Below are positions 31,586 to 55,796 of a stretch of DNA of 64,000 nt, piece after piece (positions within the stretch are counted from its first letter, which is position 1; each line of letters starts with the position of its first letter). The DNA is from a virus: positions 32,001 to 96,000 of IMG/VR virus record IMGVR_UViG_3300033233_000015; one strand, written 5' to 3'. A model generated the notes under the pieces. The model was not told where the DNA came from, did not search any database, and saw only the letters and a program-made list of their open reading frames with translations. The translations under genes were made by a program, and so were the position numbers.

Positions 31586-31589
31586 GCTC

Positions 31590-32234
31590 GTGATGGACTT
31601 CGGGAGCGAACTCTCTTTCGGTGGTCGTTCCGTCGAAGGATTCGGGCTCGGCACGTTTCTTCGCCAGCCGTCCGTCGAGGATCTTCGCAACCTCATCAAC
31701 GCCAAAGACTACGAGCTGAATCAAATCTACAAGCACTACATGGCCTTCTGGCAGATGTGGGAGACCGTAGATTTGCCGGCCAAGCTCGATTGGGCCAACG
31801 ACTGGAACGCGCTTCTCGCAAGATACAAGAAGGCAAAGGAGACCGCGCAGTGGGCGTTCGACAAGGCGGCGGGGCAGCCGTGGCCGGACTCGGTCATCCT
31901 GGCTCCCGACGAATGGAACACCGTGCTTCGAGCGCTGAGAAAAAATTGGGACGGCAAGACGGGGGGTACGCTGGAGAAGGGTGATGAGGCCGATCTCGAA
32001 TTTCGCCTTTCGGCTGCGAGCCACAAGAGCAGCGACTTCTCGCACGAGCCGCAACCGACGGGCGACGTCGATCTCGAGATTTTCAAAGCCGCCGACAAGG
32101 CGACCAAGGGGATCGAAACCGTCGCGGGTAAAATCGCCAACTACGTCCCGATCGGACTCGCCATCGGGGCAGGCATCTTGGTGCTCGTAGCGGGGGCCTA
32201 CGTCATCGCTCTCTTGCCCAAGTCGAGATCATGA
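31590..32234 (+). CDS. tail-anchored membrane protein with GGRSVEGFGLG leader
   Basis: helical body, C-terminal TM. Confidence 0.7.
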   Translation: MMDFGSELSFGGRSVEGFGLGTFLRQPSVEDLRNLINAKDYELNQIYKHYMAFWQMWETVDLPAKLDWANDWNALLARYKKAKETAQWAFDKAAGQPWPDSVILAPDEWNTVLRALRKNWDGKTGGTLEKGDEADLEFRLSAASHKSSDFSHEPQPTGDVDLEIFKAADKATKGIETVAGKIANYVPIGLAIGAGILVLVAGAYVIALLPKSRS

Positions 32235-32578
32235 AGTCCAGCACGAAGACCCTCATCGCGGCCGGCGCGGGCGCGGCGATCGTCGGATTGATCGCGGTGA
32301 TCGCTTCTCCGAAGTCGAACGCCAGCTCGGGACAGGTTCAAGTCCTGCACGGTCACCGATACCGACTCTCGCACGTGTACCCATCGGGAACGCAGCCTCC
32401 GAGCGTCGCGGTGATGCAGCAGAAGATCGATGTTCTGATGCCGAACACGTGGAGAGTTGTCTCCTCGTCGTTCGACATAGACAGATCGGTCGGGACGTTC
32501 ATCGCCGACATGATCGGTCAGACGCACTACGAAATGACGGTCGGCGGATCGATCGAAGACATGGGGCCGACGCCATGA
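32231..32578 (+). CDS. N-terminally anchored membrane protein
   Basis: LIAAGAGAAIVGLIAVIA. Confidence 0.65.
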   Translation: MKSSTKTLIAAGAGAAIVGLIAVIASPKSNASSGQVQVLHGHRYRLSHVYPSGTQPPSVAVMQQKIDVLMPNTWRVVSSSFDIDRSVGTFIADMIGQTHYEMTVGGSIEDMGPTP

Positions 32579-33279
32579 CCATTTTTTTCGGAGGTAGACC
32601 CGTACGCGGCTTCGGTCTCGAGGATTCGGGACCGACACCGATCCCTCTCTGCGGTTTTCCGAACACGCCCGACTGCGACAGGTTCACGCTCAAGACGGGC
32701 CACCGCTACGTCGCTGGAGGCATCTTCCTCTATCGCTACAAGCCCGACTTCCCGATGGCGGAGGAAGAGAAGCAGGATTTCATCTCGAGCTTCGGCGGCG
32801 CGATGATGGTCGATTGGGTGAAAGCGCTTGGGCCGCCGAACGATCTCGGTGCAGCAGCGCCTCAGGGATTTCAGTGGGCTCTTTCGGTGATCTTCCAGGG
32901 CTACGCCAAGCGCGATCAGATCCTCATCAACGGACAGACGGAGACGTGGCTCGTTGCTGCGCAGGTGCCCGACAACGTCACGCCTCCGCCCGAACCTCCT
33001 GCGCCGACACCGCCGAGCGTCACGGAGCACCGAGGCGTGAAGATCATCTACCAGCTGGTGCCTGGTGGCGGATGCGTCGCTGCGTTCGTTACGCAGCAGG
33101 GGAGCTTCGACGTGCAAGACGTCGACTGCGACGGTGCCATCGCGAAGGCGAAGGCGAAACTCGACTCGATGATGGGCGGCGGCGCGAGCCCCTCTTCCTC
33201 GAGCCACACCGGCATCATCGTCGGCATCGCGGCGGGCGTCGTCCTCGCGGGAGCTGCCCTGATCGCAACATCGAGATGA
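32575..33279 (+). CDS. tail-anchored membrane protein with GGRPVRGFGL leader
   Basis: C-terminal GIIVGIAAGVVLAGAALIA. Confidence 0.7.
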   Translation: MTIFFGGRPVRGFGLEDSGPTPIPLCGFPNTPDCDRFTLKTGHRYVAGGIFLYRYKPDFPMAEEEKQDFISSFGGAMMVDWVKALGPPNDLGAAAPQGFQWALSVIFQGYAKRDQILINGQTETWLVAAQVPDNVTPPPEPPAPTPPSVTEHRGVKIIYQLVPGGGCVAAFVTQQGSFDVQDVDCDGAIAKAKAKLDSMMGGGASPSSSSHTGIIVGIAAGVVLAGAALIATSR

Positions 33280-33953
33280 AGCGTGCATGGATCGTCGCCG
33301 GCGGAGCGGGAATCGCCATCGCGACGGTAGCGATCGTGAGGTCTCGACACGCGCGCGCGCAGTCGAGACCAGACTTCAATCGCTCCGTGCTTGCTCGAGC
33401 CGAAAGCGATCTCGGTGTCATCGAGACGTCACCCAACAGCGGGCCACGCGTGGACGAGATGCTGAGATCGGTCGGGATCAACGTACCCGCCAACTGGTGC
33501 GCGGCGGCCGTGTCGACATGGGTTCGGGAAGCAGCGCGCGAGCTCGGCGTTGGCGTGCCCATCGCGGGGTCTGCGAGCGTGCTTTCGATCGTTCAAGAGA
33601 TGCGCGATCCGAACAACCCAAAGGTCGGATGGATCGAAACAACAGACCTGCGCGCGCATCCTGAGCGCGTGCGGCCAGGGATGATCGTGGCGTGGACGCG
33701 CGGTCTGCCTGGCAGCGGCTTGGGACACATCGGTATCGTCGAGAGCAGCGACAGCCGAGGCGCGTTCGTACACATCGACGGCAACGCGGGCGCTAACGCT
33801 GATCGCGTCGCCAAAGGCACAAGCGATCTCTCGAGCGCGTCGCTGATCGGGATGGGGTTCTTCCGCGACATCGCTGTCGGACTCGGCGACTACAACTTCG
33901 CGCTCGGCTACTACAACGATCCGCCGGGGGCTCTCCTTTTTCCGCTATCCTGA
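33276..33953 (+). CDS. CHAP/NlpC-type peptidoglycan amidase with N-terminal anchor
   Basis: NWCAAAVS, GHIGIV, HIDGN. Confidence 0.8.
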   Translation: MKRAWIVAGGAGIAIATVAIVRSRHARAQSRPDFNRSVLARAESDLGVIETSPNSGPRVDEMLRSVGINVPANWCAAAVSTWVREAARELGVGVPIAGSASVLSIVQEMRDPNNPKVGWIETTDLRAHPERVRPGMIVAWTRGLPGSGLGHIGIVESSDSRGAFVHIDGNAGANADRVAKGTSDLSSASLIGMGFFRDIAVGLGDYNFALGYYNDPPGALLFPLS

Positions 33954-33958
33954 AGATC

Positions 33959-34618
33959 ATGATCGAGAAGCCCGTACCTGGCGTCCTCGCGAGACCTCAC
34001 CCCGGCGGCAAACGCGGAGCGATGATCTCGCTCGACGAGACCGCGAAAGGCGCGTGGCGCGATCGGATGTCGCCGCGGCTTCGCGCGTGGGCTACGCAGC
34101 AGCTCGACAAGTGTGGCCGTCCCACGGGGAAACGCGCACGCGTGCAGTGCCTCCTCGACGCCTTCCGCAAGAAGGTGCCCTATCTGGCCGATCCGAAGTG
34201 GGGTGAGTTCATCGCGAGCTCCGACCAGCTTCTCTGCGTGGACGAAGACAAGAACCTCTGCTTCATCGGCGCCGACTGCGAAGAGCACGCTCGAGCGATG
34301 GCGGCCCTCTGTCTCTGCATCGGGATTGACGCGATGATCGTGGGCCAGTCGTCACGAGATCCCGCCGACGTCCCCACGCACGTCTACTTCGCGTTCAAAG
34401 ACGATCTCGATTCGTGGGTCCGAGGCGACTCGACGACGACGTATCCGGTGGGCAGGGTCGCTCCGTACCTTCGCGAGTGGTGGGTCGATCCGTCCGAGGG
34501 TGTCGCTGAGGCGGGGCTCGGCGACATCGTCGTGATGGGCGCCACGGATGGTTTGCAGGATGCACCTAAAAATGGTGCGGTCTACACGGGTCGATACGCG
34601 GGGCTGTTCTCGAAATGA
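33959..34618 (+). CDS. transglutaminase-like Cys-His-Asp enzyme
   Basis: GADCEEHA, THVYF, WVRGDST. Confidence 0.7.
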   Translation: MIEKPVPGVLARPHPGGKRGAMISLDETAKGAWRDRMSPRLRAWATQQLDKCGRPTGKRARVQCLLDAFRKKVPYLADPKWGEFIASSDQLLCVDEDKNLCFIGADCEEHARAMAALCLCIGIDAMIVGQSSRDPADVPTHVYFAFKDDLDSWVRGDSTTTYPVGRVAPYLREWWVDPSEGVAEAGLGDIVVMGATDGLQDAPKNGAVYTGRYAGLFSK

Positions 34619-35049: not shown

Positions 35050-36468
35050 ATGGCGTCCTACGCGGATTGGCTCTCAGAGATGTCTCGACGGCGACCTCGC
35101 CGTCGTCGCGCTCGACGATCCGCCGCGCCCGTCGCCTCTTCCCGATCCTCTACATCCCGAACGTCGCCGAAGCGTCCTGCGAAAAAAAAGAAGACCAAGC
35201 AAACCGCCGGCTCCGGCGGACGTAAAACGAAACAAGGAGTGACCATGGCCCGTCGCCGTCGCCGAAAGCACGCCAAGAGCCCCGTCGCAGAGACCCGTCG
35301 TCGTCGCCGGCGAGCCGCAGCCCCGAAACGTCGTCGCCGTCGGGCGCGAGAAGCGGCGGTGGCGCAAGCTCCGCGTCGGCGTCGTCGCGCGCGTCGTCGC
35401 GCGGCACGGTCGTGGTTCGGCAACGCCCCCGGACATCGTCGAGCCGCGAAGAAGGGCTGGCGTAAGAAACGCAGCAGCGGTCGTCGGCGTCGAAGCCGCG
35501 AGGTGAGCGAGGCTCCGCGCCGCCGCCGCCCGAGCCGTCGTCGGGGTCGTCACTACCGAGAGGCCGCGCACGAGGCGCGTCGCGGCGGGTACTCCCGACG
35601 TCGGCGCCACGCGCGCAACAACCCGGCGATGAACGGAGGCGAGCTCGCCATCGCGTTCATCGCGGGCGGTCTCGGCTTCACGCTCGCCGACTTCGCCGAT
35701 CGGTACTTCGCCACGTACGATCCGTCGGCGACGGGCGAACTGCCGAAGGACAAGTTCACGGGCGGCAACGGCACGATGGCGAACACGCTCAACATCGCCG
35801 CGCCGCCAGGCTTCCTTCGAATCGGCGTCGGCGTCGCGCTGACGGCTCTTCCGGGGGTCGGCGCGTACCTCGTCAAGAACTCGATGGCGAAGGCCGCGCT
35901 CCACGGCATGATGATCGGCGCGGGCATCAAGCTCTTCTCGACGCTCTTCAATGCGTTCGTGATGGGCAACCTGCTCAAGCCGGGACCGCAGGACGATCCG
36001 AAGAAGTCGCTCGGAGCGCGCCTCTACCCGGCCGAGATCACCGCGGCGCAGAACATGTCGAACAGCCCCGCGACGATGGCCTCGCCGTTCAACCCCGGCC
36101 TCGCGGCTCGTCCTCAGCAACGCGACGTCGGACCCTTCGCACTCGCGCAGGATCCGAGCGCGTTCGCTCCCGCACCGAGCGCGCCGCCCGTGAACGTCGC
36201 GCCGAGCCCTCCGCCCGTGAACGTGGACAGACCGCCATCGAACGGCGGCGGTCCGCCCGTGAACGTGGACAGACCGCCATCGAACGGCGGCGGTCCGCCC
36301 GTCGTCATGAGCCCGCCCATGGGTCCGCCGCCCTCGAGCGGACCGCCCGCGCGATCGGGCGGATCCTGCCCCGCCTGCAAAGGCGAGAGCGGGGCGTGCG
36401 GCTGCCTCGGATCGCAACCTCAAGCGCAGACGAACTACGCCTACCTCGGCGTCATCAACGAATCGTGA
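35050..36468 (+). CDS. Arg-rich (protamine-like) membrane protein, putative DNA-condensing core protein; alternative start 35245
   Basis: poly-Arg N-terminus, three hydrophobic segments, Pro-rich tail; AAGGAG RBS before ATG 35245. Confidence 0.7.
   Translation: MASYADWLSEMSRRRPRRRRARRSAAPVASSRSSTSRTSPKRPAKKKKTKQTAGSGGRKTKQGVTMARRRRRKHAKSPVAETRRRRRRAAAPKRRRRRAREAAVAQAPRRRRRARRRAARSWFGNAPGHRRAAKKGWRKKRSSGRRRRSREVSEAPRRRRPSRRRGRHYREAAHEARRGGYSRRRRHARNNPAMNGGELAIAFIAGGLGFTLADFADRYFATYDPSATGELPKDKFTGGNGTMANTLNIAAPPGFLRIGVGVALTALPGVGAYLVKNSMAKAALHGMMIGAGIKLFSTLFNAFVMGNLLKPGPQDDPKKSLGARLYPAEITAAQNMSNSPATMASPFNPGLAARPQQRDVGPFALAQDPSAFAPAPSAPPVNVAPSPPPVNVDRPPSNGGGPPVNVDRPPSNGGGPPVVMSPPMGPPPSSGPPARSGGSCPACKGESGACGCLGSQPQAQTNYAYLGVINES
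36211..36302 (+). repeat. perfect 42-nt tandem duplication (PPVNVDRPPSNGGG x2)
   Basis: 36211-36252 is identical to 36253-36294. Confidence 0.95.
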
Positions 36469-36524: not shown

Positions 36525-37775
36525 ATGGAAGCTCAAGTGAAGAAGTCGATGACGAAAGCTCGGTTCGGCCAGGACCGCGATCGGGTGAAGCGCGTTCCCT
36601 TCGGTCTCGGCGACGCGCCAAGCTCCGACGCGCTCAACAAGACGCTCCGTTGCTCCTTCGGCAACGTGCCCGTCATCGAGGAGGTCGTTTGGACGATTCC
36701 TCTCCCGCTCTCCGAAGCGGAAGCGCAGAGCACGTTCGGCGACATCATCAACGTGCTCACCTCGCAGGCGAACGTGCCGGGTGTCGCGTCGATCGACTCG
36801 ACGTTCCTGCTCAACGGCATCCTGCAGACGGACCTCTACACGCAGGGCGTCGGCGTGCACGTCTTCTGCGAGCCGATGCAGCTCGCGACGATCGGCAACG
36901 CTTGGACGTCGCCGCCCACGGCCGGCGCCGTTCCGCCGCCGTCCCCCGACGTCTTCACGCTGAACGATGTCGCCGGCGGCGCGCTCGGTCTCGCGCAAGG
37001 CACCACGATGGTGCCCGCCGCCTTCGATTGGGGCGGCGAGGTGTGGCGCGCGGGCTGGAACTTCATCAACGCGTACCAGTTCCAGTGGAAGACGAGCCAG
37101 CGCGAGCTCGTCTTGAACGAGCTGGCGGCCGACGTCTCGTACTTCGGCAGCTTCGCGGACGCGGAGGCGGCGGGCACCAGCGAGTTCCCGATCGCGGAGC
37201 TCGTCGCGCGCACGAACGCCGTCTACCGCTCGAAGGCGTCGGGGTTCACCTTCCTCCCCGTGAACTTCCGCCGCGTCGGAAGCGTCACGGTGGCGGCGGC
37301 CAACGTCGGCATCTTCCACCCGACGCGCGACTTCGACCTCGCGCCCGTCACCTGGGGCGGTCTCCGCTGGCAGGGGTACGGCTGCAAGGGTCAGATGTAC
37401 CGGATGATCGAGAACCCGTGCTTCCTCGAGCGCGCGATTCCGATCGGCATGCAGTTCATCGTGCAGGATCCGGTGCACCAGGCCGCGATGCTCGAAGCGC
37501 TCACGATGGACAACTCGCTGCTCGGGACGAACATCAGCCCCGACACGAACATCAGCTGCGCGAACACGACGACGGGCGCGAACGTCATGCTCGAGCAGAC
37601 GCTCGACTCGCCGCCCGTGAACACGCCGCAGCAGGTGACGCTCTGCCGTCAGGTCTTCAAGGGCGGCATCCTCAAGATCGGCATCAAGCTCAAGGGGTGG
37701 GAGTTCCCCGCTCCGTGGCGTCTCTGGTGCCAGCAGAACGCGCCGCAGCTCGTCTCCTGCCCCGCGCAGAGCTGA
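36525..37775 (+). CDS. candidate major capsid / major structural protein
   Basis: 416 aa, beta-rich, strongly biased codons, follows the Arg-rich protein and is followed by a strong hairpin; no HK97 motifs recognised. Confidence 0.45.
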   Translation: MEAQVKKSMTKARFGQDRDRVKRVPFGLGDAPSSDALNKTLRCSFGNVPVIEEVVWTIPLPLSEAEAQSTFGDIINVLTSQANVPGVASIDSTFLLNGILQTDLYTQGVGVHVFCEPMQLATIGNAWTSPPTAGAVPPPSPDVFTLNDVAGGALGLAQGTTMVPAAFDWGGEVWRAGWNFINAYQFQWKTSQRELVLNELAADVSYFGSFADAEAAGTSEFPIAELVARTNAVYRSKASGFTFLPVNFRRVGSVTVAAANVGIFHPTRDFDLAPVTWGGLRWQGYGCKGQMYRMIENPCFLERAIPIGMQFIVQDPVHQAAMLEALTMDNSLLGTNISPDTNISCANTTTGANVMLEQTLDSPPVNTPQQVTLCRQVFKGGILKIGIKLKGWEFPAPWRLWCQQNAPQLVSCPAQS

Positions 37776-37796
37776 GCCAAGCAGCGTGACTAGACC

Positions 37797-37838
37797 GCGA
37801 CGGGCGGCGCGGATTTCTGCGCCGCCCGTTGCCGTTTC
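37797..37838 (+). terminator. GC-rich hairpin (terminator/attenuator or mRNA stabiliser)
   Basis: ACGGGCGGCGC (37800-37810) / GCGCCGCCCGT (37819-37829), short T tract. Confidence 0.65.
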
Positions 37839-37849
37839 AGGAGAGCCCG

Positions 37850-38536
37850 ATGCTGCCGCGTGACCTCCAGATAAAGAATCTCGCTTGGATCTCCCCCAAG
37901 ATCGCCTACGGTCTCGTGGCGCAGGTTCCCCGTGTGCCGTTCGTCGGTCCCATCACGACGAACCCCGGCGTTCCGTCGCCCGTCGTACCGATTCAGTTCA
38001 CCGCGAACTGGCTCGCTCCGCCCGCGCTGCCTCCGGGCAATCCGCCGAACAACATCGGCATCAACCCGATCATCCAAGGCACGCTTCAGAACAACGTGAC
38101 GCAGGACACGCTGATCGAGCGCATCGTGTACTCGCTCTGGCAACCGAACGCGTTCTCGACGCCGCCGTCTCCGTTCCAGACGCTATACCTGTCGCAGCTC
38201 AAGAGCTCCACGGGCGTCGATGTCCTGCTCGATGTCTACGGAAGCCCGAAGTACCGCGTGTGCGACTTCTTGCCGCTCGAGAACCTCGCTGACGTGCTCG
38301 CCGTCACGTGGCCCAACGGATGGCCGCTGCGCAAGCAGGAGAACGTCAAAGTGCAGGCCGTGCTCACCAGACCGCAGCCCGGAACGGTCGAAGCCCCCGT
38401 CGGCATCCCGTACTTCGTGAACATGGCGCTCGTCGGATGGCAGTTCGTCGGGAAGGAGATCGACGACATGTCCGACGACGAGGCGCGTCGGCGTCTCAAA
38501 GCGATGGGGATCGAAGTCCCTGAGGTGCCGCGATGA
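37850..38536 (+). CDS. putative structural protein, paralogue A
   Basis: AGGAG RBS; aligns end to end with 38533..39156. Confidence 0.7.
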   Translation: MLPRDLQIKNLAWISPKIAYGLVAQVPRVPFVGPITTNPGVPSPVVPIQFTANWLAPPALPPGNPPNNIGINPIIQGTLQNNVTQDTLIERIVYSLWQPNAFSTPPSPFQTLYLSQLKSSTGVDVLLDVYGSPKYRVCDFLPLENLADVLAVTWPNGWPLRKQENVKVQAVLTRPQPGTVEAPVGIPYFVNMALVGWQFVGKEIDDMSDDEARRRLKAMGIEVPEVPR

Positions 38537-39156
38537 TCGACCGCGACTACAACGTGAAGAACTTGGCGCTCTACGCGCCGCGCGTCGCGTGGGCGATGAT
38601 CGCGGGCATTCCGCGCGTCGCGTTCGCGGTGGACGTGCCGATTCAGTTCTCGTCGGCGACCGTCAACGCTCCCCCCGTCGTCGGGAGCTTTCAGAACTCG
38701 CTCACGCAGGACACCGTCATCGAACGTGTCTCGTTCTCGCTCTTCCAGCAGAACACGTTTCCGGGCTCTCCCTTCCAGACGCTCTACTTCGCGATGGCGA
38801 AGGCGATCAGTGGCGTCGGCGTGCAGATGAGCGTCTACGGGGGGCCGAAGTACAACGTGAACGACACGTTCACGGCGCTAGAGAACATGGCCGACGTGCT
38901 CGCGATCACGTGGCCGAGCGGATGGCCGCTCTACAAGGGCAGCAACGTCAAGGTGACGGCGGCGCTCCTCCAGACGCCGTTCTCGACGCCGTACGACGTG
39001 AACCTCACGTTCCTTGGCTGGCAGTTTCTCGACGCCGAGCTCGACGCGATGAGCGACTCGGAAGCTCGTCGTCGTTTGCGGGCGCTCGGACTCGAGTCAC
39101 CCGATCTCGCATCGCTCATCGGATCAGGGGGCGCGACGGCGCCACACAAGGAGTGA
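38533..39156 (+). CDS. putative structural protein, paralogue B
   Basis: shares KNLA, TQDT.IER, EN.ADVLA.TWP.GWPL, GWQF, MSD.EARRRL. Confidence 0.7.
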   Translation: MIDRDYNVKNLALYAPRVAWAMIAGIPRVAFAVDVPIQFSSATVNAPPVVGSFQNSLTQDTVIERVSFSLFQQNTFPGSPFQTLYFAMAKAISGVGVQMSVYGGPKYNVNDTFTALENMADVLAITWPSGWPLYKGSNVKVTAALLQTPFSTPYDVNLTFLGWQFLDAELDAMSDSEARRRLRALGLESPDLASLIGSGGATAPHKE

Positions 39157-40534: not shown

Positions 40535-41163
40535 GGTGCCCGTACGTGCAGAACATGGTGACGGGGCAGGTCGAGAGCGAACCTGCTGGACCCAATGATG
40601 CGGGCATCGAGCGTTCGCTCCGATGTTTCGCCGAGTACATCAACAGCATGGGGCTCGGAGACGGAGGAAACATGATTTCGTACGGTGGACGCCCCGTAGC
40701 GGGCTTCGGTGTGCTCGACAACCTCGGCCTCTCGGGTGCCGACATCTACAACGCTCTGTCCAGCGATCAGCGGACGTGGCTCGCCTCGGCGATGCAGACG
40801 TTCGAAGGAGCTCGCAGGGACGCTGGCGCGTCGGCGTGCCCGGAGTGGCCGCAGACGTTTCAGACGGTCGCGGACTTCCAGGCAGCCGTCGCGTGCACGC
40901 AGGCGTGGATCAACGCCGGCAACCCCGGCCTTCTTCGCACCGACGGCGTCATGGACGAATCCACGCTCTGCGCGATCCAGTTCGAGGCGTACAAGATGCC
41001 CCCCTACGCGCAGAACAGATTCCCCGATCCGTCGGGCAAGTTCTGCAAGTCGATGACGACGACGGAGAAGAAGTCGAACACCGTCTACTACGTCGCTGGC
41101 GGCGTCGCGGCGGCGCTGGCCGTCGGCGCGGCGATCGTCTACTCGAGAAAGCGAGCTGCGTGA
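40531..41163 (+). CDS. tail-anchored protein with GGRPVAGFG motif and PG-binding-like motif; possible internal start 40672
   Basis: GGAGG before ATG 40672; LRTDGVMDESTL; C-terminal TM + RKR. Confidence 0.65.
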   Translation: MRCPYVQNMVTGQVESEPAGPNDAGIERSLRCFAEYINSMGLGDGGNMISYGGRPVAGFGVLDNLGLSGADIYNALSSDQRTWLASAMQTFEGARRDAGASACPEWPQTFQTVADFQAAVACTQAWINAGNPGLLRTDGVMDESTLCAIQFEAYKMPPYAQNRFPDPSGKFCKSMTTTEKKSNTVYYVAGGVAAALAVGAAIVYSRKRAA

Positions 41164-42314
41164 TGCTCGACTACAAGGTCCGTCATGGCGACTCGCCCGC
41201 CGCCATCGCGCGCCGCTACGGCGTGTCGGTGACCTCGCTCGTCGGGGCGAACCCGCAGAAGCACACGACCGTCGTCGCGGGTCAGCAGACGTGGCGCTCC
41301 TTGCACATCGGAGAGGTCGTGCGCGTTCCGTCGGCTCGAGTCGGGCTCGCGGGACAGACTTCGGTGGACGTCGGTGCGTCACCCATCGGATCGAAGACGC
41401 CGACGATCACCGCGTTCATTACGAACTCGGATCAAGCAACCATCGGCGGCGACGTGCAGTTCTTCGTGGACGGGAACTTCGTTGGCGCCGCTTCGGTCAT
41501 CCCTCAAGGCGGCGGCAGTTCGACCGCAAGCGTGACCCTCGCCGACGAGCTCTCGCCCGGTAACCACACGTTCGATGCCGCGTACTCGGGAGATCCTTCG
41601 AACGACGCGGGCCGAGGATCGGTGACGTTCTCGGTCGCAGGCGGCGGTGGCGGAGGCGGCGGAGGTCGCTACTCGAGCACGATCGTCGCTGCCGCGCAGG
41701 CGCTCGACGCGCAACTCGTCGCGAAAGGCTGCTGCGGCTGCGGCGATGCGGCGTCTGCCCTCAGCGCAGTGGTCATGGCCTTCAAGAGATCGATCCTCAC
41801 GAACCCCTCGCAGTGGGGCGTCCCTGGCATCGGAAACGCTGCCACCGTGACGGGCAGCACGATCGACGTCTCGAACGATCAGTGTCAGCACGCGTTCGGC
41901 AACGGCACGATCAACGATCTGCGTGCCGTGCTCGGATCGGGCATGCGGTACTCAGGCGGTCCGTGCGCGACGTGGAACGGAGCAGGTAACTGCCCGTGCA
42001 CGAACACGGGCTCGAACTGCGGACAGCAGCCGCCTTCGCAGACGTTCCCGTGTCCGGCAGGAACCGTCAAAGAGGGTCAGCAGGTCGCGAACATCCTCAC
42101 CGACTGCGGCGGCCCGAAGCAGCCTCCGCGCGGCTGCTCGACGAACAACCCCTGCCCGTCAGGTCAGCAGTGCCAAAGCGGCCAGTGCATCACGCCTCCG
42201 AGCTCGGGCGGAGGCGGCGGAAGCGCGGGCGCGCTTCTCGCTGGCGTCCTGCTCGTTGGCGGCGGCATCGCAGCCACCACGATCGCCATGAAGAGAAAGA
42301 AGCGTCACCCGTGA
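41163..42314 (+). CDS. LysM + Ig-like + Cys-rich tail-anchored protein
   Basis: YKVRHGDSPAAIARRYG; GDVQFFVDG..GNHTFDAAYSGD; C-terminal TM + KRKKR. Confidence 0.8.
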   Translation: MLDYKVRHGDSPAAIARRYGVSVTSLVGANPQKHTTVVAGQQTWRSLHIGEVVRVPSARVGLAGQTSVDVGASPIGSKTPTITAFITNSDQATIGGDVQFFVDGNFVGAASVIPQGGGSSTASVTLADELSPGNHTFDAAYSGDPSNDAGRGSVTFSVAGGGGGGGGGRYSSTIVAAAQALDAQLVAKGCCGCGDAASALSAVVMAFKRSILTNPSQWGVPGIGNAATVTGSTIDVSNDQCQHAFGNGTINDLRAVLGSGMRYSGGPCATWNGAGNCPCTNTGSNCGQQPPSQTFPCPAGTVKEGQQVANILTDCGGPKQPPRGCSTNNPCPSGQQCQSGQCITPPSSGGGGGSAGALLAGVLLVGGGIAATTIAMKRKKRHP

Positions 42315-45004: not shown

Positions 45005-46261
45005 ATGAAGTCGAGCCTCGAAGAAGCGCACTACAGCGAACTGCTCTATCTCGTTCAGATGGCGCTCGCGCGCGCGTCATCCGCCAGCGGGCTCTTGCTG
45101 GCCGGCAACGTCGTCGGGCCGCTCGGAGCAAACCGCGTCGTCGAGCTGAGTGGCGACTCGATCACGAAGCTCGTCGCGCTCGATTCGGGAGCTACGATCA
45201 GGCAAATGCAAACCGGGACAGCGGCAGCCCCCTCGACGGAAGTGCCACTCGTCCTTCAGCCGCGCCTGACGACGGACGGCTTAGCGAAGTCGCCGTTCGT
45301 GATGGAGATGGCTTCGTATCTGTTCGCGACAACCTACGATGAGGTCGTCGACTTCGGCTGGAACATGAACAGCGCAGAGCCGACGCTCCCAACGATCCGT
45401 GATAGCTGGGAAACCGACTACGAGATTTTCCCCGGCATTCATCAAGCCGAGATGCACAAGCAGTTCAGTCGGCTCGGTGGTGGTGGTGGCGACACGTACC
45501 GCTGGATCACCTCCGGTTTTCGATACGCCTCGCATCGTGGAACGTCTGCTCTTCAGTGGCGCGACGGTACGGGCGGCACCGATCCCGATGGCGGCGACGC
45601 TGGCTACACCAACATTGGTGAAGTCACCGGCAACCCGACGATGACGTTCGCGACCGCTGGAATCACGACGAACACGAAGAACATCAACTTCCTCGCGGTA
45701 GGGACGTGGCTGCTCGACGGCGGGACGAAGACCGACAACATCGCCGCCCCCAACAGCATGGTCTTCAAGCCGCAAGCCCCGTTCGCGGGCGCCACGCTCG
45801 GGAATCGGAATCCAGGCAACTACGAGATCGACCTGGCCGTTCCCATCGCGGGAGGGAGCGAAGCGAACGTCATCGTCCGGCGAGGCGTCAACATCATCTA
45901 CGAGCTGTCAGCGGGATCGACGACGTGGGCGGACGCGACCGGAGCGTCTTACTTCGAGATCGTTCTTTCTGGCGTCTCGACTCAACTCGTCGGCCTTTCG
46001 CCAGGCACGATGTACGTGTCAAACAATGCTGGCGCTCTGCAACTCACGGCGACGACCGGCGTCTATCTCCTCGCGGGCGCGGGGGACCAGTGTCACTTTT
46101 ACGTAGCCGGTGTAGAGCTGGCGCAAGTGGCCGCTAACGGCGTCGCGAATCAGACGTCGCTCGTCGTGGCATGCGACGCTGCAAACACGTTGAGCCGAGT
46201 GACACTGGGTGCGGCCAACTCGGGCGGCGCTGGGTTCCGCGTACTTCGTGTCCCGAACTGA
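45005..46261 (+). CDS. fibre-like virion protein
   Basis: LAGNVVGPLGANRV; C-terminal RVTLGAANSGGAGFRVLRVPN; beta-rich. Confidence 0.55.
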   Translation: MKSSLEEAHYSELLYLVQMALARASSASGLLLAGNVVGPLGANRVVELSGDSITKLVALDSGATIRQMQTGTAAAPSTEVPLVLQPRLTTDGLAKSPFVMEMASYLFATTYDEVVDFGWNMNSAEPTLPTIRDSWETDYEIFPGIHQAEMHKQFSRLGGGGGDTYRWITSGFRYASHRGTSALQWRDGTGGTDPDGGDAGYTNIGEVTGNPTMTFATAGITTNTKNINFLAVGTWLLDGGTKTDNIAAPNSMVFKPQAPFAGATLGNRNPGNYEIDLAVPIAGGSEANVIVRRGVNIIYELSAGSTTWADATGASYFEIVLSGVSTQLVGLSPGTMYVSNNAGALQLTATTGVYLLAGAGDQCHFYVAGVELAQVAANGVANQTSLVVACDAANTLSRVTLGAANSGGAGFRVLRVPN

Positions 46262-48579: not shown

Positions 48580-49137
48580 ATGAAGCCCTGGCTGAAAGCG
48601 GCATCCGCGCTCTTCGGCGTCGGCGCCGTCGCGCTCACGCTGACCGCAGCGTCGCGCGCGTCGAAGTCCTCAGCAGCTCCACGCCACTCGCGCATCGCTC
48701 TCATCGGTGACTCGTACGCGGTAGGTCTTGGTCCCGAGCTCGCCAAACTCCTGCCTGACTTCAAGGCTGAGGGCCACGTCGGAACGAACACATCGCAGTG
48801 GGCTCATCACGATCGTGCGTGCGGAACGTGCGGAGACTGGCTGACGGCGTTCGCGCCCACCCTCGTGCTCGTATCGCTCGGCGTCAACGACGACGGATCC
48901 CCACACATCGAGAACTACCAAGCCATCGTGCGCGCGCTGCACGGAATCGGTGCGCGTGTCGTGTGGATCGAGCCGCCGGCGAACGTGACGGTGAACGTGG
49001 CAGCGGTACGGAGGATCATCGCGTCGCTCGGCGTCGAGACGGTGCCGGCGACGCAGACCGCGCTGAGCTCGGATGGAGTGCATCCTCAGAGCTACGCTCC
49101 GTGGGCGCGGGAGGTGGCGGGGCATGTTGTGGCCTGA
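48580..49137 (+). CDS. SGNH/GDSL hydrolase with N-terminal anchor
   Basis: IGDSYA, SLGVND, DGVHP. Confidence 0.85.
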   Translation: MKPWLKAASALFGVGAVALTLTAASRASKSSAAPRHSRIALIGDSYAVGLGPELAKLLPDFKAEGHVGTNTSQWAHHDRACGTCGDWLTAFAPTLVLVSLGVNDDGSPHIENYQAIVRALHGIGARVVWIEPPANVTVNVAAVRRIIASLGVETVPATQTALSSDGVHPQSYAPWAREVAGHVVA

Positions 49138-49990
49138 CAAGCGAGAGAAGAAGATCCGCTTCACCATCTACCTCCATCGCAACCGAGTCACCGGCAAGCC
49201 GTACGTCGGGCAGACGAAGAAGACGATGCAGAGACGATGGAGCGACCACGTAAGCGACGCCAAAAAGAATCGCGGTTGCCGTCTTCTCGGCGCCGCCATT
49301 CGCAAGTACGGATCCGACGCATTCGATCACGAAGTCCTCGACGTCGTGACCTCGCAGAGCGGAGCTGACATCGCTGAGGCGGTGTGGATCAAGCAGCGGC
49401 GGGCGCTCACTCCGGACGGGTACAACCTGGACTCAGGTCGCTACCAGGGCGCAGAGAGATCGTTTTCGCATAGCGAAGAGACGAAGCGGCTGATGAGCGA
49501 GAAGGCGAAGGCGCGCGAGGTGCGGATGACGCCTGAAGAGAGAAGCGCGCGAAGGCTCGGGACGTCCACGCAGGAAGATCGAAACGAAGTCGCGCGAAAT
49601 AGATGGGCGTCGTACACACCCGAGAAGCGGGCAGACATTGCGAAGAGGGTGAGCGAATCTCTGTCTGCTTCGGAGAAGAACACTGCTGCGATTCGGGCTC
49701 GATGGGCGAAGACGACGCCAGAGCAGCGGAGCGACATCGCGCGCAAAGTTCATGAAGCGCAGACACCTGAGCAGCGAAGCGAACGGCAGCGCAAATCGTG
49801 GAACTCGATACCGATCGATCGACGCATCGAGATGATCGCGACCCTCGCAGCAGCAAGGCGAAAACCTCGTGGCCCGAACGGAAGGAAGATCGGGTGCTCA
49901 AGGTGCGGAGCCGACGTGGAGGTATCATCGGGATCTTGGTGTAAAAACTGTCGTCGCGAATACAGCAGGAATTGTCGCCATGGCACTTGA
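49124..49990 (+). CDS. GIY-YIG homing endonuclease with NUMOD3-like and helical repeats
   Basis: TIYLHRN..KPYVGQT..RRWSDH; HSEETKRLMSEK; TPEQRS repeats. Confidence 0.85.
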   Translation: MLWPDKREKKIRFTIYLHRNRVTGKPYVGQTKKTMQRRWSDHVSDAKKNRGCRLLGAAIRKYGSDAFDHEVLDVVTSQSGADIAEAVWIKQRRALTPDGYNLDSGRYQGAERSFSHSEETKRLMSEKAKAREVRMTPEERSARRLGTSTQEDRNEVARNRWASYTPEKRADIAKRVSESLSASEKNTAAIRARWAKTTPEQRSDIARKVHEAQTPEQRSERQRKSWNSIPIDRRIEMIATLAAARRKPRGPNGRKIGCSRCGADVEVSSGSWCKNCRREYSRNCRHGT

Positions 49991-50663
49991 TTGGCCCGCA
50001 TTCGGCGATGCGCTCTGGAAGGTCTACGACCAGACGGGCATTCGTCCCGAGTGGCAGATCCCCGTGATGTCGCTCGAGACGGGCGGCACGTTCGATCCGG
50101 CGATCTGCAATCCATCGAATTGTTGCGGACTTAACCAGTTCTGCGGCTCCACGTACACGCACTACGTCCACGTCCCCATCAGCGAGTACCGCACGTGGCT
50201 GGCGAGTCAGCAGCTCGCCGGTCCGGTGCTCGCGTACTGGAAGGACGCGCTCAACTTCGGCAAGATCCGCTCGAGCGCCCGCCTCATGGTCGCGCAGCTC
50301 GGTCAAGGGCTCCTCCGAACCCCCGCGAGCCTCGAGCGCGTCGTCTTCCGATCGCCTAGCATCGAGTACAAGAGCAACTCGGGCTTCGACACGCAGAAGA
50401 AAGGGACCATCACCGAGCAGGACATCGCGAACTCGATGGCGCGGCAGGTGCCGCGCGCTTCGGTGAAGGACGCCATCGCGAAGGCGTACGCGATGCGTCC
50501 TGGCGAAGTGGTGCGCGATCCCGTGTACGGCGAAGACTACGGAGGAGGCGGCGTCACACCCCCCGTGCGTCGCGCCGCGAGCTCGACGTCGTGGATCGCT
50601 CCCGTGCTCGTCGTCGGGACGCTTCTTGGCGGCGGCGCGGCCCTCGCGTACGTTTGGAAATAG
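49980..50663 (+). CDS. lysozyme/lytic transglycosylase-like protein, tail-anchored
   Basis: VMSLETGGTFDP..CGLNQF; C-terminal TM. Confidence 0.7.
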   Translation: MALDWPAFGDALWKVYDQTGIRPEWQIPVMSLETGGTFDPAICNPSNCCGLNQFCGSTYTHYVHVPISEYRTWLASQQLAGPVLAYWKDALNFGKIRSSARLMVAQLGQGLLRTPASLERVVFRSPSIEYKSNSGFDTQKKGTITEQDIANSMARQVPRASVKDAIAKAYAMRPGEVVRDPVYGEDYGGGGVTPPVRRAASSTSWIAPVLVVGTLLGGGAALAYVWK

Positions 50664-51194: not shown

Positions 51195-51563
51195 GTGTCC
51201 AGCGACGTCCTGCCCGAGTGTCGCGCGCGAGATCGCAAAGGCGCGATCCACACGCCGAACGGATGGTTCGTCCCCGTCTACTGCGCCAACTGCGGCAAGA
51301 TCGCTGGCATGGTGCCCGAGAGCCACATCACGCACGTATTCGCGCTCTGCGACAACGGATGCGCGGGGAAATACGGCGACACTGCGCATGAGTACGTAGA
51401 CCCCGATGCCATCTACCGCGAACGCGCGACCGCGGAAGCGTTGAAGAAGTACGGTCGCGCGCTCACGCCTGCGGAGGTCGAGCGCGAGCTCGACAACGTG
51501 TCGTCACCCATCGCCAAGATCGCCAAGGAATGGCAGGATCGCGTTCGCAAGGAGAGTCGATAG
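51195..51563 (+). CDS. hypothetical zinc-binding protein
   Basis: CANCG, CDNGC. Confidence 0.6.
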   Translation: MSSDVLPECRARDRKGAIHTPNGWFVPVYCANCGKIAGMVPESHITHVFALCDNGCAGKYGDTAHEYVDPDAIYRERATAEALKKYGRALTPAEVERELDNVSSPIAKIAKEWQDRVRKESR

Positions 51564-51824
51564 ATGCCCGCTCCGAAACTCGTTCCCGCTCAATGCGACG
51601 TCCCCGGATGCGGGATGCCCGCGATCATGTCCACCGACGGCACCGAGAAGGACATCGCCAAGAAGCGCGTCACCAACAAGGACGGTGACACGCGCGATGA
51701 GCTCCTCAACCGACCCGCCGCCAAAGACGTCAACGTGTGCGACCGCCATCGCAACTGGCCGCACTCCGACGACGCGCACCGATTCGTCGCGAGCGACGAC
51801 TTCAAGAAGCAGAAGCGAGGCTAA
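51564..51824 (+). CDS. hypothetical protein
   Basis: CDVPGC..CDRH. Confidence 0.55.
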   Translation: MPAPKLVPAQCDVPGCGMPAIMSTDGTEKDIAKKRVTNKDGDTRDELLNRPAAKDVNVCDRHRNWPHSDDAHRFVASDDFKKQKRG

Positions 51825-51827
51825 GCC

Positions 51828-52319
51828 GTGCTCTACTACACCGACGTCCCCGGCGCGACGATCACCACGAACGCGGCGATCAATACCGCCAACGACTGCA
51901 CCTTCATCAAGTCGGGATCTGCGCGCACCTGCTGGCTCAACGCGATCTATCCCCAAGGACGCGGCGCGCTCCTCACGTCGATCAGCGGCATCAGCTACCG
52001 ACTCGAGAAGTGGACGACGACAGCGAGCTCTGGCGGAAGCGCGATCACGCCGAGCCCTGACGATCCTGGTTTTCAGGCCGCGAAGCACACGGCGGGATTC
52101 TCGGCCACCACCGTCACAAGCGGTACGGGCGGCCCCACGCTGATGATCTCGATCGGATCGGGGACCACGAGCCCCGGCAACTGGCTCGCTGCTGACAGCA
52201 ACGGTCCGAACAGCATGGGGTACTCGCTCGAAGCGGGTGCCAACCAATCGCTCGACATCTTCAACATCGCGAGCGCGACGGCGCTCACGTTCGAAATCAG
52301 CTGGGGCGTCGCCGAGTGA
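51828..52319 (+). CDS. beta-rich putative virion protein
   Basis: S/T/G-rich composition. Confidence 0.6.
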   Translation: MLYYTDVPGATITTNAAINTANDCTFIKSGSARTCWLNAIYPQGRGALLTSISGISYRLEKWTTTASSGGSAITPSPDDPGFQAAKHTAGFSATTVTSGTGGPTLMISIGSGTTSPGNWLAADSNGPNSMGYSLEAGANQSLDIFNIASATALTFEISWGVAE

Positions 52320-52863: not shown

Positions 52864-53583
52864 ATGGCCGATCTCGTTCTCAAAGGCGGAGCCCCCAACT
52901 CCACAACGATCGGTGTCCCGTTCACGCCCTTGATGGTGGACGCGACATACAACGCCGCTCGCGTCACGTTGAAGCCGGACGAGTACAACTTCGGATCGTT
53001 CAACGGGGGTCACTACCGTACCGCGCAAGTATCAGGCGCGCTGACTGGCGTAGGCGCAGCGGGTGCCGTCTTCTCGATGCGGTGGGCGAACACGAACGGT
53101 CTCTTTCTTCTGAAGCGCCTCCTCGTCGGCTACGCGATCACGACCGCGTTTACCGCGGGGCAGCTCGTAGACTTCGATGTCGTGCGCGACAGCGCGTTCA
53201 CTGCGGCCGACACGGGCGGAACGGCGCTCACGCCGTTCATCGGAAACAACGCGAAGAAGCGCTCCTCCACCATGGCTACGAGCCAGGTAGCTGACATGCG
53301 TATCTCTTCAACCGCAGCGCTCGGAGCGGGCACGAAGACCGCGGACACGAATCCGTTCGGATACGCGACGACCGCTCCGACCAATCTCGCTGTCCCTACA
53401 GCCACCGTCGCTGGCGGCTTCATGCAGCTCACGGAGATGTACGTTCAGGACGCGAACGCGGCCCACCCTGAGATGTTCGGCGCGAACGAGGGCTTCAACA
53501 TCCGTAACGTGACCGCGATGGGTGCTGCAGGTGTCATCAAGCTCTACGTCGTCTGCGATTGGGCCGAGGTGCCGGGCCTGTAG
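52864..53583 (+). CDS. beta-rich putative virion protein
   Basis: GAGGA RBS; A/T/G-rich. Confidence 0.65.
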   Translation: MADLVLKGGAPNSTTIGVPFTPLMVDATYNAARVTLKPDEYNFGSFNGGHYRTAQVSGALTGVGAAGAVFSMRWANTNGLFLLKRLLVGYAITTAFTAGQLVDFDVVRDSAFTAADTGGTALTPFIGNNAKKRSSTMATSQVADMRISSTAALGAGTKTADTNPFGYATTAPTNLAVPTATVAGGFMQLTEMYVQDANAAHPEMFGANEGFNIRNVTAMGAAGVIKLYVVCDWAEVPGL

Positions 53584-53603: not shown

Positions 53604-55796
53604 GTGCTCGACAATCTACTCGGCGGAATAGGACTCGAAGAAGTCGGCCAACCGCCGACGACGCTTCGATCGCAAAGACCCGTAGCGCCGTCGAGCGGTG
53701 AGGACTTCGTAGGATCTCTCCCGCCGCTTGAGGAGCAGTCGACACCGACGCGCGTGTGGAAATCGCGCGCGCAGCTGCCGGCAAATCGTGACGAAGACTT
53801 CGTCTCCACGACTGTCGTTGCTCTCGACGAGGATCCCGCACTGGCCCGATCCAGGGCTCGAGCGATCGTCTCGATCGTCACAAGAGGAGAAGACTTCGCA
53901 GGATCGCTTCCGCTAGAGGAAGATCCCTCTCGAGTCACGCAGCGCCGTCGACAACCGGTGATCGCTTTCGCTCGAGAGGAGGAGTTCGGGCTTCCGCACC
54001 CCGTCGATGAGTCGGCGCTCATCGCGCGCGCGCGCCCTCGTTCGCCAGCCCCGATCACTTCTCGTGGAGAGGACTTCGCAGGCAGCCTCCCGCTCGAGGA
54101 GATCGGCACGCTCGCGGCAGTTCGGCGTCGATCGGCATCGATCGCGGTATCGCGTGACGAGGAGTTCGGCGCGACGCATCCATCGGAAGACTCTCCACTG
54201 CTCGCGCGGTTGGCCCGCCGAGCGCTGCGATGGGTGCTTGGTCAGAGCGAAGACTTCGCGGGCAGTTTGCCCCTGGAGGAGCTCGCCCCGCCTGTTCAGA
54301 TCACGGCTCGCAAGCGATCGATCGTCTGGACGGTCGGCGAAGACTTCGCGGGAAGCCTGCCGCTCGAAGAGGACGCAGCGAGATCGCTGATCACGCCGCG
54401 CAAGCGCTGGATCAGCTGGACGGTCGGTGAAGATTTCGCCGGATCGTTGCCTCTCGAAGAGTTCTCACCGATCGTTCGCGGAGGCTCTCCGCGTCGCCAC
54501 GCGACGACGATCGTCGCAGAGGATTTCGCGGGATCTCTTCCGCTAGAAGAGCTCAGTTCGTTCTCATCGACACCGACGACGAAGCGCACGCACTCGCCGA
54601 CCTTCGGGCACGAAGACTTCGCGGGATCGCTTCCGTTCGAGGAATCGTCTTCCGTCGTTCGTCGGGAGACGTTGCGTCGATTTTCGCTACCGACCTTCGG
54701 GGAGGACTTCGCCGGCGCGTTGCCGACAGAAGATCCCGTACCTGGGGCGGTAGTTCGAGCTCGACAACGGATTCCGCCGATCTCTACGGACGAAGAGTTT
54801 GGGGCTTCGCACCCAATAGAGGATCAGCCATCGAGCGCGATTGTTCTGTCGCTCGCGCGCGCAAGGGGCCGTGCACCTATCGTCGAGGATTTCGCAGGAT
54901 CGCTTCCGCTAGAGGAAGAGACCACGAGCGCGCGAGTGATCGCCAGGGTGAGGATTTCGACCGTAGAGTCGATCGGCGAAGAGTTCGGCTCCGCTCATCC
55001 GATCGAAGAAGAGGCCGCGCCGCCCATCTCCCGCCGCATCCGTCGGTGGTTCACGATCACGGTCGAGGAGCATTTCGCTCCCGCGCCCCCACCACCGCCT
55101 CCGCCACCGCCTCCGCCCCCGACACCATCTCAACTGAGCGGCGGAGGTACGGGATGGTTTGGGCCGCGCGAGCTCCCTCCGATTCCGTACTGCCCTCCCG
55201 GATGGCTGCCGAAGCCCATCAACGAGTACGAGTACGAGTGCGAGGCTGATCTCGCGATCCTGCACGAACAAGGGGCCATCGTCCGCGCGTTCGCGGACGG
55301 CATCGTCGAATCGTTCGTCGATGACAAGGGCCGCACTACGATGGTGCTCACGGACGACGGAGGCACCCGCTACTGGTACGCCGACATCGGGGAGAAGATC
55401 GCCAAAGATGGCGCGCGCGTGAAGAGCGGGCAGATCATCGCTCGCGTCAGGCCGAACGCGGCAACCGCGCCAGCGATCACTCCGCGCACTGCATCGCGCG
55501 CGCTGCCTTCTGCCACGTCGATCTCGGAGCCTGAACCAAAGCCGAAGCCCGTTCAGATCGTGTTCGTAGAGCCGCCGCATCCGCCGATTTCAAACTTCGT
55601 GATTCGGATGCCATCGACACCGCCGCCTCTACCGATTCCGCCACCAGCGCCGCCTAGACCGAACGAGTGGGGCGTGCAGTCGCCGACGCTGCGCCGCGGT
55701 CAAGAGACCGAGATCGTTCGGGCGGTCGTTTACATCGGAGGGGTGGCCGCTCTTCTCTACGCGCTCACGCTGCTCGATCCATCGAGACGGAAGTAA
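53604..55796 (+). CDS. repeat protein (~15 x 30 aa) + degenerate M23-like domain + C-terminal TM
   Basis: xEDFAGSLPLEE / xEEFGxxHPxEE repeats; VRAFADGIV..YWYAD..GARVKSGQIIARV. Confidence 0.75.
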   Translation: MLDNLLGGIGLEEVGQPPTTLRSQRPVAPSSGEDFVGSLPPLEEQSTPTRVWKSRAQLPANRDEDFVSTTVVALDEDPALARSRARAIVSIVTRGEDFAGSLPLEEDPSRVTQRRRQPVIAFAREEEFGLPHPVDESALIARARPRSPAPITSRGEDFAGSLPLEEIGTLAAVRRRSASIAVSRDEEFGATHPSEDSPLLARLARRALRWVLGQSEDFAGSLPLEELAPPVQITARKRSIVWTVGEDFAGSLPLEEDAARSLITPRKRWISWTVGEDFAGSLPLEEFSPIVRGGSPRRHATTIVAEDFAGSLPLEELSSFSSTPTTKRTHSPTFGHEDFAGSLPFEESSSVVRRETLRRFSLPTFGEDFAGALPTEDPVPGAVVRARQRIPPISTDEEFGASHPIEDQPSSAIVLSLARARGRAPIVEDFAGSLPLEEETTSARVIARVRISTVESIGEEFGSAHPIEEEAAPPISRRIRRWFTITVEEHFAPAPPPPPPPPPPPPTPSQLSGGGTGWFGPRELPPIPYCPPGWLPKPINEYEYECEADLAILHEQGAIVRAFADGIVESFVDDKGRTTMVLTDDGGTRYWYADIGEKIAKDGARVKSGQIIARVRPNAATAPAITPRTASRALPSATSISEPEPKPKPVQIVFVEPPHPPISNFVIRMPSTPPPLPIPPPAPPRPNEWGVQSPTLRRGQETEIVRAVVYIGGVAALLYALTLLDPSRRK
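53697..55076 (+). repeat. protein-level repeat array, ~90-nt period
   Basis: conserved 12-aa motif with synonymous DNA variation and unique 18-19-aa spacers. Confidence 0.9.

Follow-up and report, generated by a model that had tools for sequence, protein, structure and literature searches.

The stretch of DNA analysed here (the window) is 64,000 nucleotides (nt) long and corresponds to bases 32001-96000 of the 110,081-bp IMG/VR virus record IMGVR_UViG_3300033233_000015, which comes from a soil virus. It contains an open reading frame (ORF) whose product carries a long array of repeats, each made of a constant acidic motif and a segment that is variable in sequence and fixed in length. The ORF lies at 53604..55796 on the plus strand, has a GTG start, encodes 730 amino acids (aa) and stands at the end of a long block of structural and envelope genes oriented rightward. 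GC content is lowest at codon position 2 of this frame, a pattern that fits coding. On the same strand, a leader (aa 1-31, 53604..53696; MLDNLLGGIGLEE...) is followed by the repeat array (53697..55067), which has 15 units of 30-31 aa, each with an acidic 11-mer and a variable segment of 19-20 aa. After the array there is a poly-Pro run (55080..55127, ~aa 493-508) and then a Gly-rich hinge (GGGTG), kept in the family alignment, followed by a domain of the LytM/M23 fold without its catalytic histidines (degenerate LytM; 55242..55583, aa 547-660). A Pro-rich linker (55584..55703), delimited from the sequence and the family alignment, connects this domain to a C-terminal transmembrane (TM) helix (55704..55775, aa 701-724), which is seen both in the hydropathy profile and as a helix at 701-724 in the AlphaFold2 (AF2) model. 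The protein ends in a short basic tail, DPSRRK (55776..55793), which in relatives is 10-40 aa long and very Lys/Arg-rich. An initial annotation, made from the sequence without database searches, had proposed the poly-Pro run, an M23-like domain and the C-terminal TM segment, and all three were confirmed by sequence, Pfam, AF2 and hydropathy. The N-terminus is kept among relatives. No Sec, Tat or lipoprotein features were found in it, and the helix at aa 701-724 is the sole TM segment of the protein. Part of this N-terminus, LLGGIGLEE (window 53604-53650), resembles the G-F-G-L-E-D end of a 'GGRxVxGFG' leader that is common to several other C-terminally anchored proteins of the virus (window 31590, 32575 and 40672), and the shared GFGLED-like leader may be a common docking or processing tag.

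A motif scan of the ORF gives 16 motif starts at spacings of 30 (ten times), 31 (four times) and 32 aa (once), that is, 15 full units and a degenerate 16th running into the poly-Pro run. This agrees with the initial count of about 15 units with a period of about 30 aa. The 11-mer comes in two types, with an overall loop consensus of E-[DE]-F-[AG]-G-[SA]-[LH]-P-x-E-E. Type A, EDFAGSLPLEE, had been put at about ten copies, a figure that has to be divided into seven exact copies, three with one or two residue changes and, in addition, one badly degenerate unit (unit 2). The His variant, type B (EEFGxxHPxE[DE]), occurs four times, as had been stated. From unit 3 onwards the order of the units is ABABAAAAAABAB. 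At the DNA level the repeats are far less alike than at the level of the peptide. The seven identical 11-mers have a mean nucleotide identity of 77% (range 64-94%) and are encoded with both TCN and AGY serine codons and with four Leu codons, while whole units are 35-57% identical, apart from units 7/8 at 73%. Tandem Repeats Finder found no ~90-nt repeat in the gene. Because identical 11-mers differ in their codons, the units have diverged in their DNA and there is no tandem repeat at the nucleotide level, selection is on the peptide, as the initial annotation had concluded; the repeats are old and have been held constant at the peptide level. The acidic motif does not occur elsewhere in the 110-kb genome. 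The unit and the whole of aa 1-490 have no match in Pfam, PHROGs or NCBIfam, and the whole protein and a two-unit profile found nothing relevant among PDB sequences, so that a match to a known repeat family, which would have offered a different explanation for the array, was not obtained in any of these four collections.

The variable segments, or spacers, of 19-20 aa have a mean pairwise identity of 23% (17.5 +/- 0.9% in shuffled sequences), and the highest value, 58%, is that of units 7/8. They had been described as non-repeating, which mostly holds, although they share a positional pattern. This pattern was taken from 72 exact 30-aa units in 27 proteins. Positions 12-14 are small residues or Pro, 15-19 are hydrophobic, ~20-23 form a polar turn, 24-27 are again hydrophobic and 28-30 are small; within the motif of the same units, E1, F3 and P8 (and G5 in type A) are 100% conserved. 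Two hydrophobic stretches that are split by a polar turn look hairpin-like. The turn is Arg-rich only in the window protein and a few relatives and acidic in most others, and the net charge per residue of the array is -0.04 in the window protein compared with -0.15 to -0.20 in most relatives. Since most relatives have strongly acidic arrays, the basic spacers are a feature of the lineage and not of the family, and the initial description of the spacers as basic and Arg-rich does not extend beyond this lineage. By composition, the arrays fall on the folded side of the charge-hydropathy boundary, and they contain 9-15% Pro (9% in the window protein). The AF2 model of aa 1-490 has no secondary structure, including no helix, and a predicted local distance difference test (pLDDT) score of 30-45. 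Because the underlying alignment of 30 sequences is shallow and out of register across the repeats, this result is uninformative as to whether the array is disordered or a folded rod.

The domain behind the array is well defined. Its Pfam PF01551 score in the window protein is 28.6 bits, just under the cut-off of 28.7, and the relative P0015 reaches 29.0 bits; AF2 gives a pLDDT above 90 for aa 555-625. In a VIA structure search, independent of Foldseek, of 48,161 PDB chains, the top 16 rows were all LytM/M23 domains. Matches at Z 8.0-9.2 have ~82 aligned residues and a root-mean-square deviation of 2.2-2.7. The Z scores are 9.2 for StM23 (9gy1), 8.6 for LytM (2b0p), 8.5 for EnvC, 8.2 for DipM, and 7.7 for both SpoIIQ and lysostaphin (4lxc), and the family profile also matches lysostaphin at an E value of 9.7e-6. 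Structural neighbours of the domain in BFVD include tape measures, baseplate hubs and cyanophage internal proteins. In the alignment with lysostaphin, Y-A-D of the window protein falls on Y-M-H, so the catalytic His of Y-x-H is replaced, and P-x-I-T falls on P-H-L-H, which leaves the HxH position free of His. Of the HxxxD motif, the Asp is kept (E-x-E-A-D-L-A-I-L) and the His position is a Glu, and the same is seen across the family alignment. Because these metal-binding and catalytic residues are lost, the domain is a degenerate LytM and not an active peptidase. The initial annotation was thus right about an M23-like domain without Zn ligands and wrong about the place of the substitution, which it gave as YAD replacing HxH: YAD stands at Y-x-H, and HxH is free of His as well.

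Family searches returned 14 cluster representatives with a word-indexed method and 74 with exhaustive HMMER, all of them metagenomic. About 25 of these relatives share the motif types and the 30-aa period, in arrays of ~5 to ~30 units. At a family identity of ~30%, 67 intervals between motifs are 30 aa and 26 are 31 aa, the rest being near 60, 90 and so on. In the comparison of homologues proposed in the initial annotation, the period is kept, the number of units changes and the spacers are free in sequence. Adjacent type B units are rare (3 BB pairs observed against 13.6 expected), and this avoidance points to an ordered architecture. Many further matches are proteins of 200-340 aa that align to aa 482-726 only. 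These repeat-less relatives have, in order, a short Trp/Phe/Asp-rich head, the poly-Pro run, a Gly run, the M23-like domain, the Pro-rich linker, the TM helix and a long Lys/Arg tail, with ~40 residues ahead of the poly-Pro. In P0044 and P0058 the same core of poly-Pro, dead LytM domain and TM helix stands behind arrays of unrelated tandem repeats, ~45 and ~37 aa in period, and it would seem that long periodic N-terminal extensions arose repeatedly. Conversely, in P0005/7/8/9 the acidic array is joined to a different C-terminal domain, whose end is likewise a TM helix. P0039, the one longer fusion found, has ~700 beta-rich aa ahead of the array, and these give an Ig-like Pfam match below threshold (24.9 bits, cut-off 30). 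Since the core occurs alone or behind other arrays, and the array occurs on another C-terminus, the array is an optional module that can move between proteins and the LytM/TM core is the constant part. Neither the C-terminal module nor a conserved 163-aa neighbour protein was found as a prophage copy when bacterial and archaeal genomes were searched.

The genes upstream of the array were of interest as possible partners. The gene for a beta-rich protein of 239 aa (52864..53583, plus strand) ends 20 nt upstream of the repeat gene, and a gene for a beta-protein of 187-239 aa is found directly upstream in 6/6 lineages (the window, L002, L014, L015, L017 and L020). The upstream beta-proteins of different lineages have no detectable sequence similarity to each other, and the 239-aa protein has no match in phage GenBank records. 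A little further upstream is a cassette (51195..52319, plus strand) for a 122-aa Cys/His-rich protein, an 86-aa Cys/His-rich protein and a 163-aa beta-sandwich protein (51828-52319). The cassette was seen in 12 soil metagenome contigs and 3 virus records, including all virus records that have the repeat array, and the repeat protein follows 1-4 genes after it in the window, L002, L014, L015, L017 and L020. In three contigs it is present without a repeat gene in the next 3.7-4.4 kb downstream. The 163-aa protein is 51-78% identical across viruses, compared with 28-30% for the capsid candidates of the same records. Its AF2 model is poor (pLDDT 50) and its matches are generic jelly-roll sandwiches at noise level (Z <=8.3; BFVD E >=1e-3), and no family was assigned to it on that account.

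Comparison between viruses shows how differently the array and its neighbours behave. In two records of 76-77 kb, the upstream 217-aa protein is 95% identical and a 160-aa protein 83%, whereas the repeat proteins are only 33% identical. There is a mosaic boundary here (L002:8528-8581 / L014:7800-7857), with 82% DNA identity through the 217-aa gene and ~55 nt of the repeat gene, after which only the motif codons are shared. Because of this contrast in identity and the end of homology ~55 nt into the gene, the array and LytM core must evolve, or be exchanged, far faster than their neighbours. The closest record (117 kb, capsid candidate 65-68% identical) has a repeat-less form of 321 aa and is without the 122-, 163- and 239-aa genes. 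In this record, L007, two collagen-like fibre genes with a G-P-T-G repeat (L007:5434-8403 and 13517-14569) flank the repeat-less LytM/TM gene. More generally, fibre- or spike-like and wall-degrading genes flank the repeat gene in relatives, and in the window there is a lysis-like cluster 3-6 kb upstream, with a glycoside-hydrolase-like protein, an SGNH esterase, a lysozyme-like protein and a small TM protein. Between the SGNH esterase and lysozyme-like genes lies a GIY-YIG homing-endonuclease-like gene (window 49073-49990), whose ORF overlaps both.

Several features bear on what kind of virus this is. The neighbours of the repeat gene belong to no Pfam or PHROG family. Among the larger proteins scanned there was no match to terminase, portal, HK97 capsid or tail tube, although divergent genes could be missed in such a scan, and terminase family PF03237 was also absent from three related records. 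A Walker-A scan found only a primase-helicase and replication/repair proteins, with no packaging-type Walker A among the proteins scanned; a T4-like 'QGKT' motif was considered as the packaging Walker A and rejected, as it sits in a queuine tRNA-ribosyltransferase-like gene. The whole record has no tRNA and no terminal repeats. The only matches to PHROGs of the tail category are found away from the repeat gene within the block, a lysozyme-type baseplate hub at 49869-50663 and a weaker match at 45005-46261 (E 3.7e-4). A C-terminal TM helix is present in at least seven proteins of the structural block, among them LysM+Ig-like and lysozyme-like proteins. The proteins at window 40623-42314 (LysM and Big_3_5), 49869-50663 (lysozyme-like) and 30828-33279 (three others) have no signal peptide and a single C-terminal TM helix, a layout that is unusual for phage lysins. 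A capsid candidate of 416 aa (36525-37775) has a GC content of 0.92 at third codon positions and language-model features that resemble jelly-roll capsids (score 0.85-0.88, to be read as a lead only). It has homologues in three other virus records at 28-68% identity; neither it nor two smaller related proteins (together window 36525-39156) matched anything in Pfam, PHROGs, NCBIfam or PDB sequences. Directly upstream of it is the gene for a 472-aa protein (window 35050-36468) in which poly-Arg blocks take up ~190 aa and are followed by hydrophobic segments and then a tail rich in Pro. Also in the structural block, at window 33276-34618, a CHAP-like match below its threshold (23.9 bits, cut-off 26) adjoins a transglutaminase-core protein above it (29.4 bits, cut-off 23), and elsewhere in the window a DNA-modification set (13359-14758, 15800-17152 and 21120-22163) includes QueC-like, queuine tRNA-ribosyltransferase (DpdA-like), C5 methylase and PAPS-reductase-like proteins.

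Most likely, the repeat array forms a stalk or docking rail of adjustable length. The more specific explanation that we favour, tentatively and at less than even confidence, is that the protein is a wall-binding component of viral entry or attachment, anchored in a membrane of the virion, and that its array is a length-modular stalk. The protein would be tail-anchored by its C-terminal TM helix in the virus's own lipid membrane, with the basic tail facing the packaged DNA, and the dead LytM domain would act as a non-catalytic module that binds peptidoglycan or partners a hydrolase during penetration of the cell envelope. The array, either folded or stiffened by cations at its acidic/His loops, would then determine how far the N-terminal end, a large beta-rich region in some relatives, stands from the membrane/wall-binding core. 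What favours a stalk is that the period is strict, that the spacers have a hairpin-like pattern, that the array is optional and portable, and that P0039 has a large beta-rich region at its N-terminus. Linkers in disordered regions normally do not hold their length so strictly. The context is consistent with a virion membrane, with no N-terminal export signal, many block proteins that end in TM helices, a protein with poly-Arg and TM segments beside the capsid candidate, no match to terminase, portal or HK97 capsid in the scanned proteins, and a capsid candidate whose language-model features are jelly-roll-like. The fibre- or spike-like and wall-degrading genes next to the gene in relatives, and the rarity of adjacent type B units, also speak for this explanation. 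There are several points that weigh against this explanation. The AF2 model of the array, for what its alignment is worth, gives no support for a folded rod, and with 9-15% Pro the array is richer in this residue than a regular beta-solenoid would normally be. The strongly basic tail would be difficult, in energetic terms, to bring through a membrane. An 11-mer that is nearly invariant at ~30% family identity would be expected of a binding motif sooner than of a structural turn. Finally, the viral membrane and the virion location are presumed, and the ligand of the LytM domain is putative.

The near-invariant motif is also the reason to consider the array as a periodic docking rail, or a tape measure of a non-helical kind, in which each 30-aa unit would bind one subunit of an upstream beta-sandwich protein (239-aa or 163-aa) and the unit number would fix the number of subunits that line up on the membrane anchor. 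We regard this as a serious rival of the stalk, if rather unlikely in itself. It would account for the strict period, for the beta-protein gene immediately upstream in all six lineages seen, for a 163-aa protein as conserved as the motif where capsid candidates are at ~30%, and for the joint absence of the 122-, 163- and 239-aa genes from the record whose protein has no repeats; spacers that are hydrophobic and strand-like would also be well suited to joining a beta-sandwich by strand addition. Yet the spacers do not track the upstream beta-protein, since the latter can be 95% identical while the repeat proteins are 33% identical and the DNA homology stops ~55 nt into the repeat gene. Beta-proteins of different lineages have no sequence similarity that could be detected, the 163-aa cassette can lack a repeat gene nearby, and the array is also found on another C-terminal domain. 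The ruler or scaffold suggested in the initial annotation accordingly survives as a length-modular idea, with a conserved period, a variable number of units and a beta-protein gene upstream, while its specific suggestion that the adjacent beta-proteins are the partner is not supported, given the identity contrast and the occurrence of the 163-aa neighbour without a repeat gene nearby. A bolder version, to which we give a low probability, would be a new non-helical ruler in which every unit uses its acidic loop to take up one jelly-roll subunit (encoded at 51828 or 52864) and the unit number programs the length of a membrane-rooted appendage; the bacterial viruses in question would be large (75-117 kb), without a tail and with a membrane, and their lineage would be one not described before. 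The anchor could also be placed in the host: a lysis or envelope-remodelling factor would sit in the inner membrane, its dead LytM domain would bind peptidoglycan or activate host amidases as EnvC/NlpD do, and its array would span the periplasm in the manner of a spanin. The fold matches EnvC, DipM and SpoIIQ as well as active enzymes, a basic tail after the TM helix fits the 'positive inside' rule, the lysis-like cluster is 3-6 kb upstream and wall hydrolases adjoin the repeat gene in relatives. Without a signal peptide or lipobox, however, ~700 N-terminal residues would have to cross the membrane by no known route, and arrays behind a large beta-rich N-terminal region are hard to fit, which makes this an improbable role.

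Tailed phages offer another comparison, as T5 Pb2 and some other tape measures carry a lytic domain and hydrophobic segments at their end. The window protein, with a long length module at the N-terminus and then an M23-fold domain and a TM segment, has the same outline, and tape measures, baseplate hubs and cyanophage internal proteins are among the BFVD neighbours of the domain. Nevertheless, an analogue of such a tail tape measure is very unlikely here: aa 1-490 have no predicted helix, the scanned proteins yielded no tail, portal or terminase family, repeat-less relatives have only ~40 residues before the poly-Pro, and the metal and catalytic residues are lost. In membrane-containing viruses, capsid tape measures are extended fibres bound under the capsid lattice (PMC6344570), and the extended, non-globular prediction and the membrane anchor would agree with a capsid-size ruler of an icosahedral virus of this kind, in the manner of PRD1 P30 or PBCV-1 P2. 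With genome size as a proxy for capsid size, there are ~13 units by strict-motif span (15 by direct count) at 110 kb, 16-17 in two 76-77-kb records and none at 117 kb. As array length does not follow genome size, this form of the ruler idea is disfavoured. In addition, ~460 extended residues are what PBCV-1 uses for a 190-nm capsid (PMC6344570), too long for a genome of 110 kb, and we hold the capsid ruler to be highly improbable. The initial annotation also offered a polyprotein cut into diverse cationic peptides, here a multi-core precursor cut at the constant 11-mers into ~15 peptides. Constant flanks around variable cores of fixed length do formally resemble multi-core peptide precursors, and a transglutaminase-core (papain-like) protein is encoded ~19 kb upstream. 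F-A-G-S and F-G-G-A in the motif are also similar to the AG-X / GG-X sites cut by adenain-like viral proteases. The cores are nonetheless cationic only in the window lineage, no protease or other processing enzyme is adjacent among the neighbours scanned, the genome has the motif in this gene only, a domain protein with a membrane anchor is fused to the array, and the hydrophobic pattern in the cores looks structural. We give this precursor hardly any weight.

Several known systems share features with the protein and differ from it in others. EnvC, NlpD and DipM lack the catalytic histidines in the same way, and the domain has the same fold as LytM, lysostaphin and SpoIIQ (Z 7.7-9.2). Unlike the EnvC/NlpD/DipM class, the window protein is viral and has a C-terminal anchor instead of an N-terminal signal, lipobox or TM helix. 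It also has none of the coiled-coil or LysM partner domains of degenerate LytM factors, and is instead preceded by poly-Pro and a novel repeat array. T5 Pb2 and the cyanophage internal-ejection proteins with M23 (e.g. PDB 9k2v) are built like it from a long length module at the N-terminus, a domain of the M23 fold and a hydrophobic segment, and in these systems the M23 domain is virion-associated. Their proteins are helical or globular and belong to tail or ejectosome modules, whereas the window protein has no predicted helices, its domain is inactive, tail genes were not found among the proteins scanned and relatives can do without the long module. With PRD1 P30 and PBCV-1 P2 it has in common an extended, non-globular chain whose length could encode a dimension, and an internal membrane is probable in the window virus. 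These two have no reported tandem repeats and no LytM domain, and in the window family length is unrelated to genome size and the array is optional. Gram-positive surface proteins such as FnBPA consist of a head, tandem repeats, a Pro-rich wall-spanning region, a membrane helix and a basic tail, and the tandem beta-zipper repeats of FnBPA are acidic, have no structure by themselves and attach to beta-sandwich modules through strand addition. The window protein has a module order of this type and differs in having no signal peptide and no LPXTG, in its viral origin and in its unrelated unit sequences. RTX beta-rolls and the hairpin repeats of choline-binding and CROP proteins combine a short, conserved Gly/acid-rich loop with variable strands, a strict period, a variable copy number and a cation or ligand at the loops. 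The window repeat has no sequence or profile similarity to them, and has a 30-aa unit, high Pro and no predicted fold.

Known viral proteins that set a length are helical tail tape measures or extended capsid cement, and the window protein differs from both. It is distinguished by a set of properties: a strict 30-residue period, a near-invariant acidic loop, hypervariable fill and a free copy number, together with an inactive cell-wall-enzyme domain and a membrane anchor. If the repeat is merely an unstructured linker, the finding reduces to a new family of LytM-domain virion or lysis proteins, which would be ordinary. If the stalk or docking explanation is true, the unit number would be a simple, countable handle on how the particles of an uncultured soil virus group are built, a group that itself looks unlike the tailed phages.

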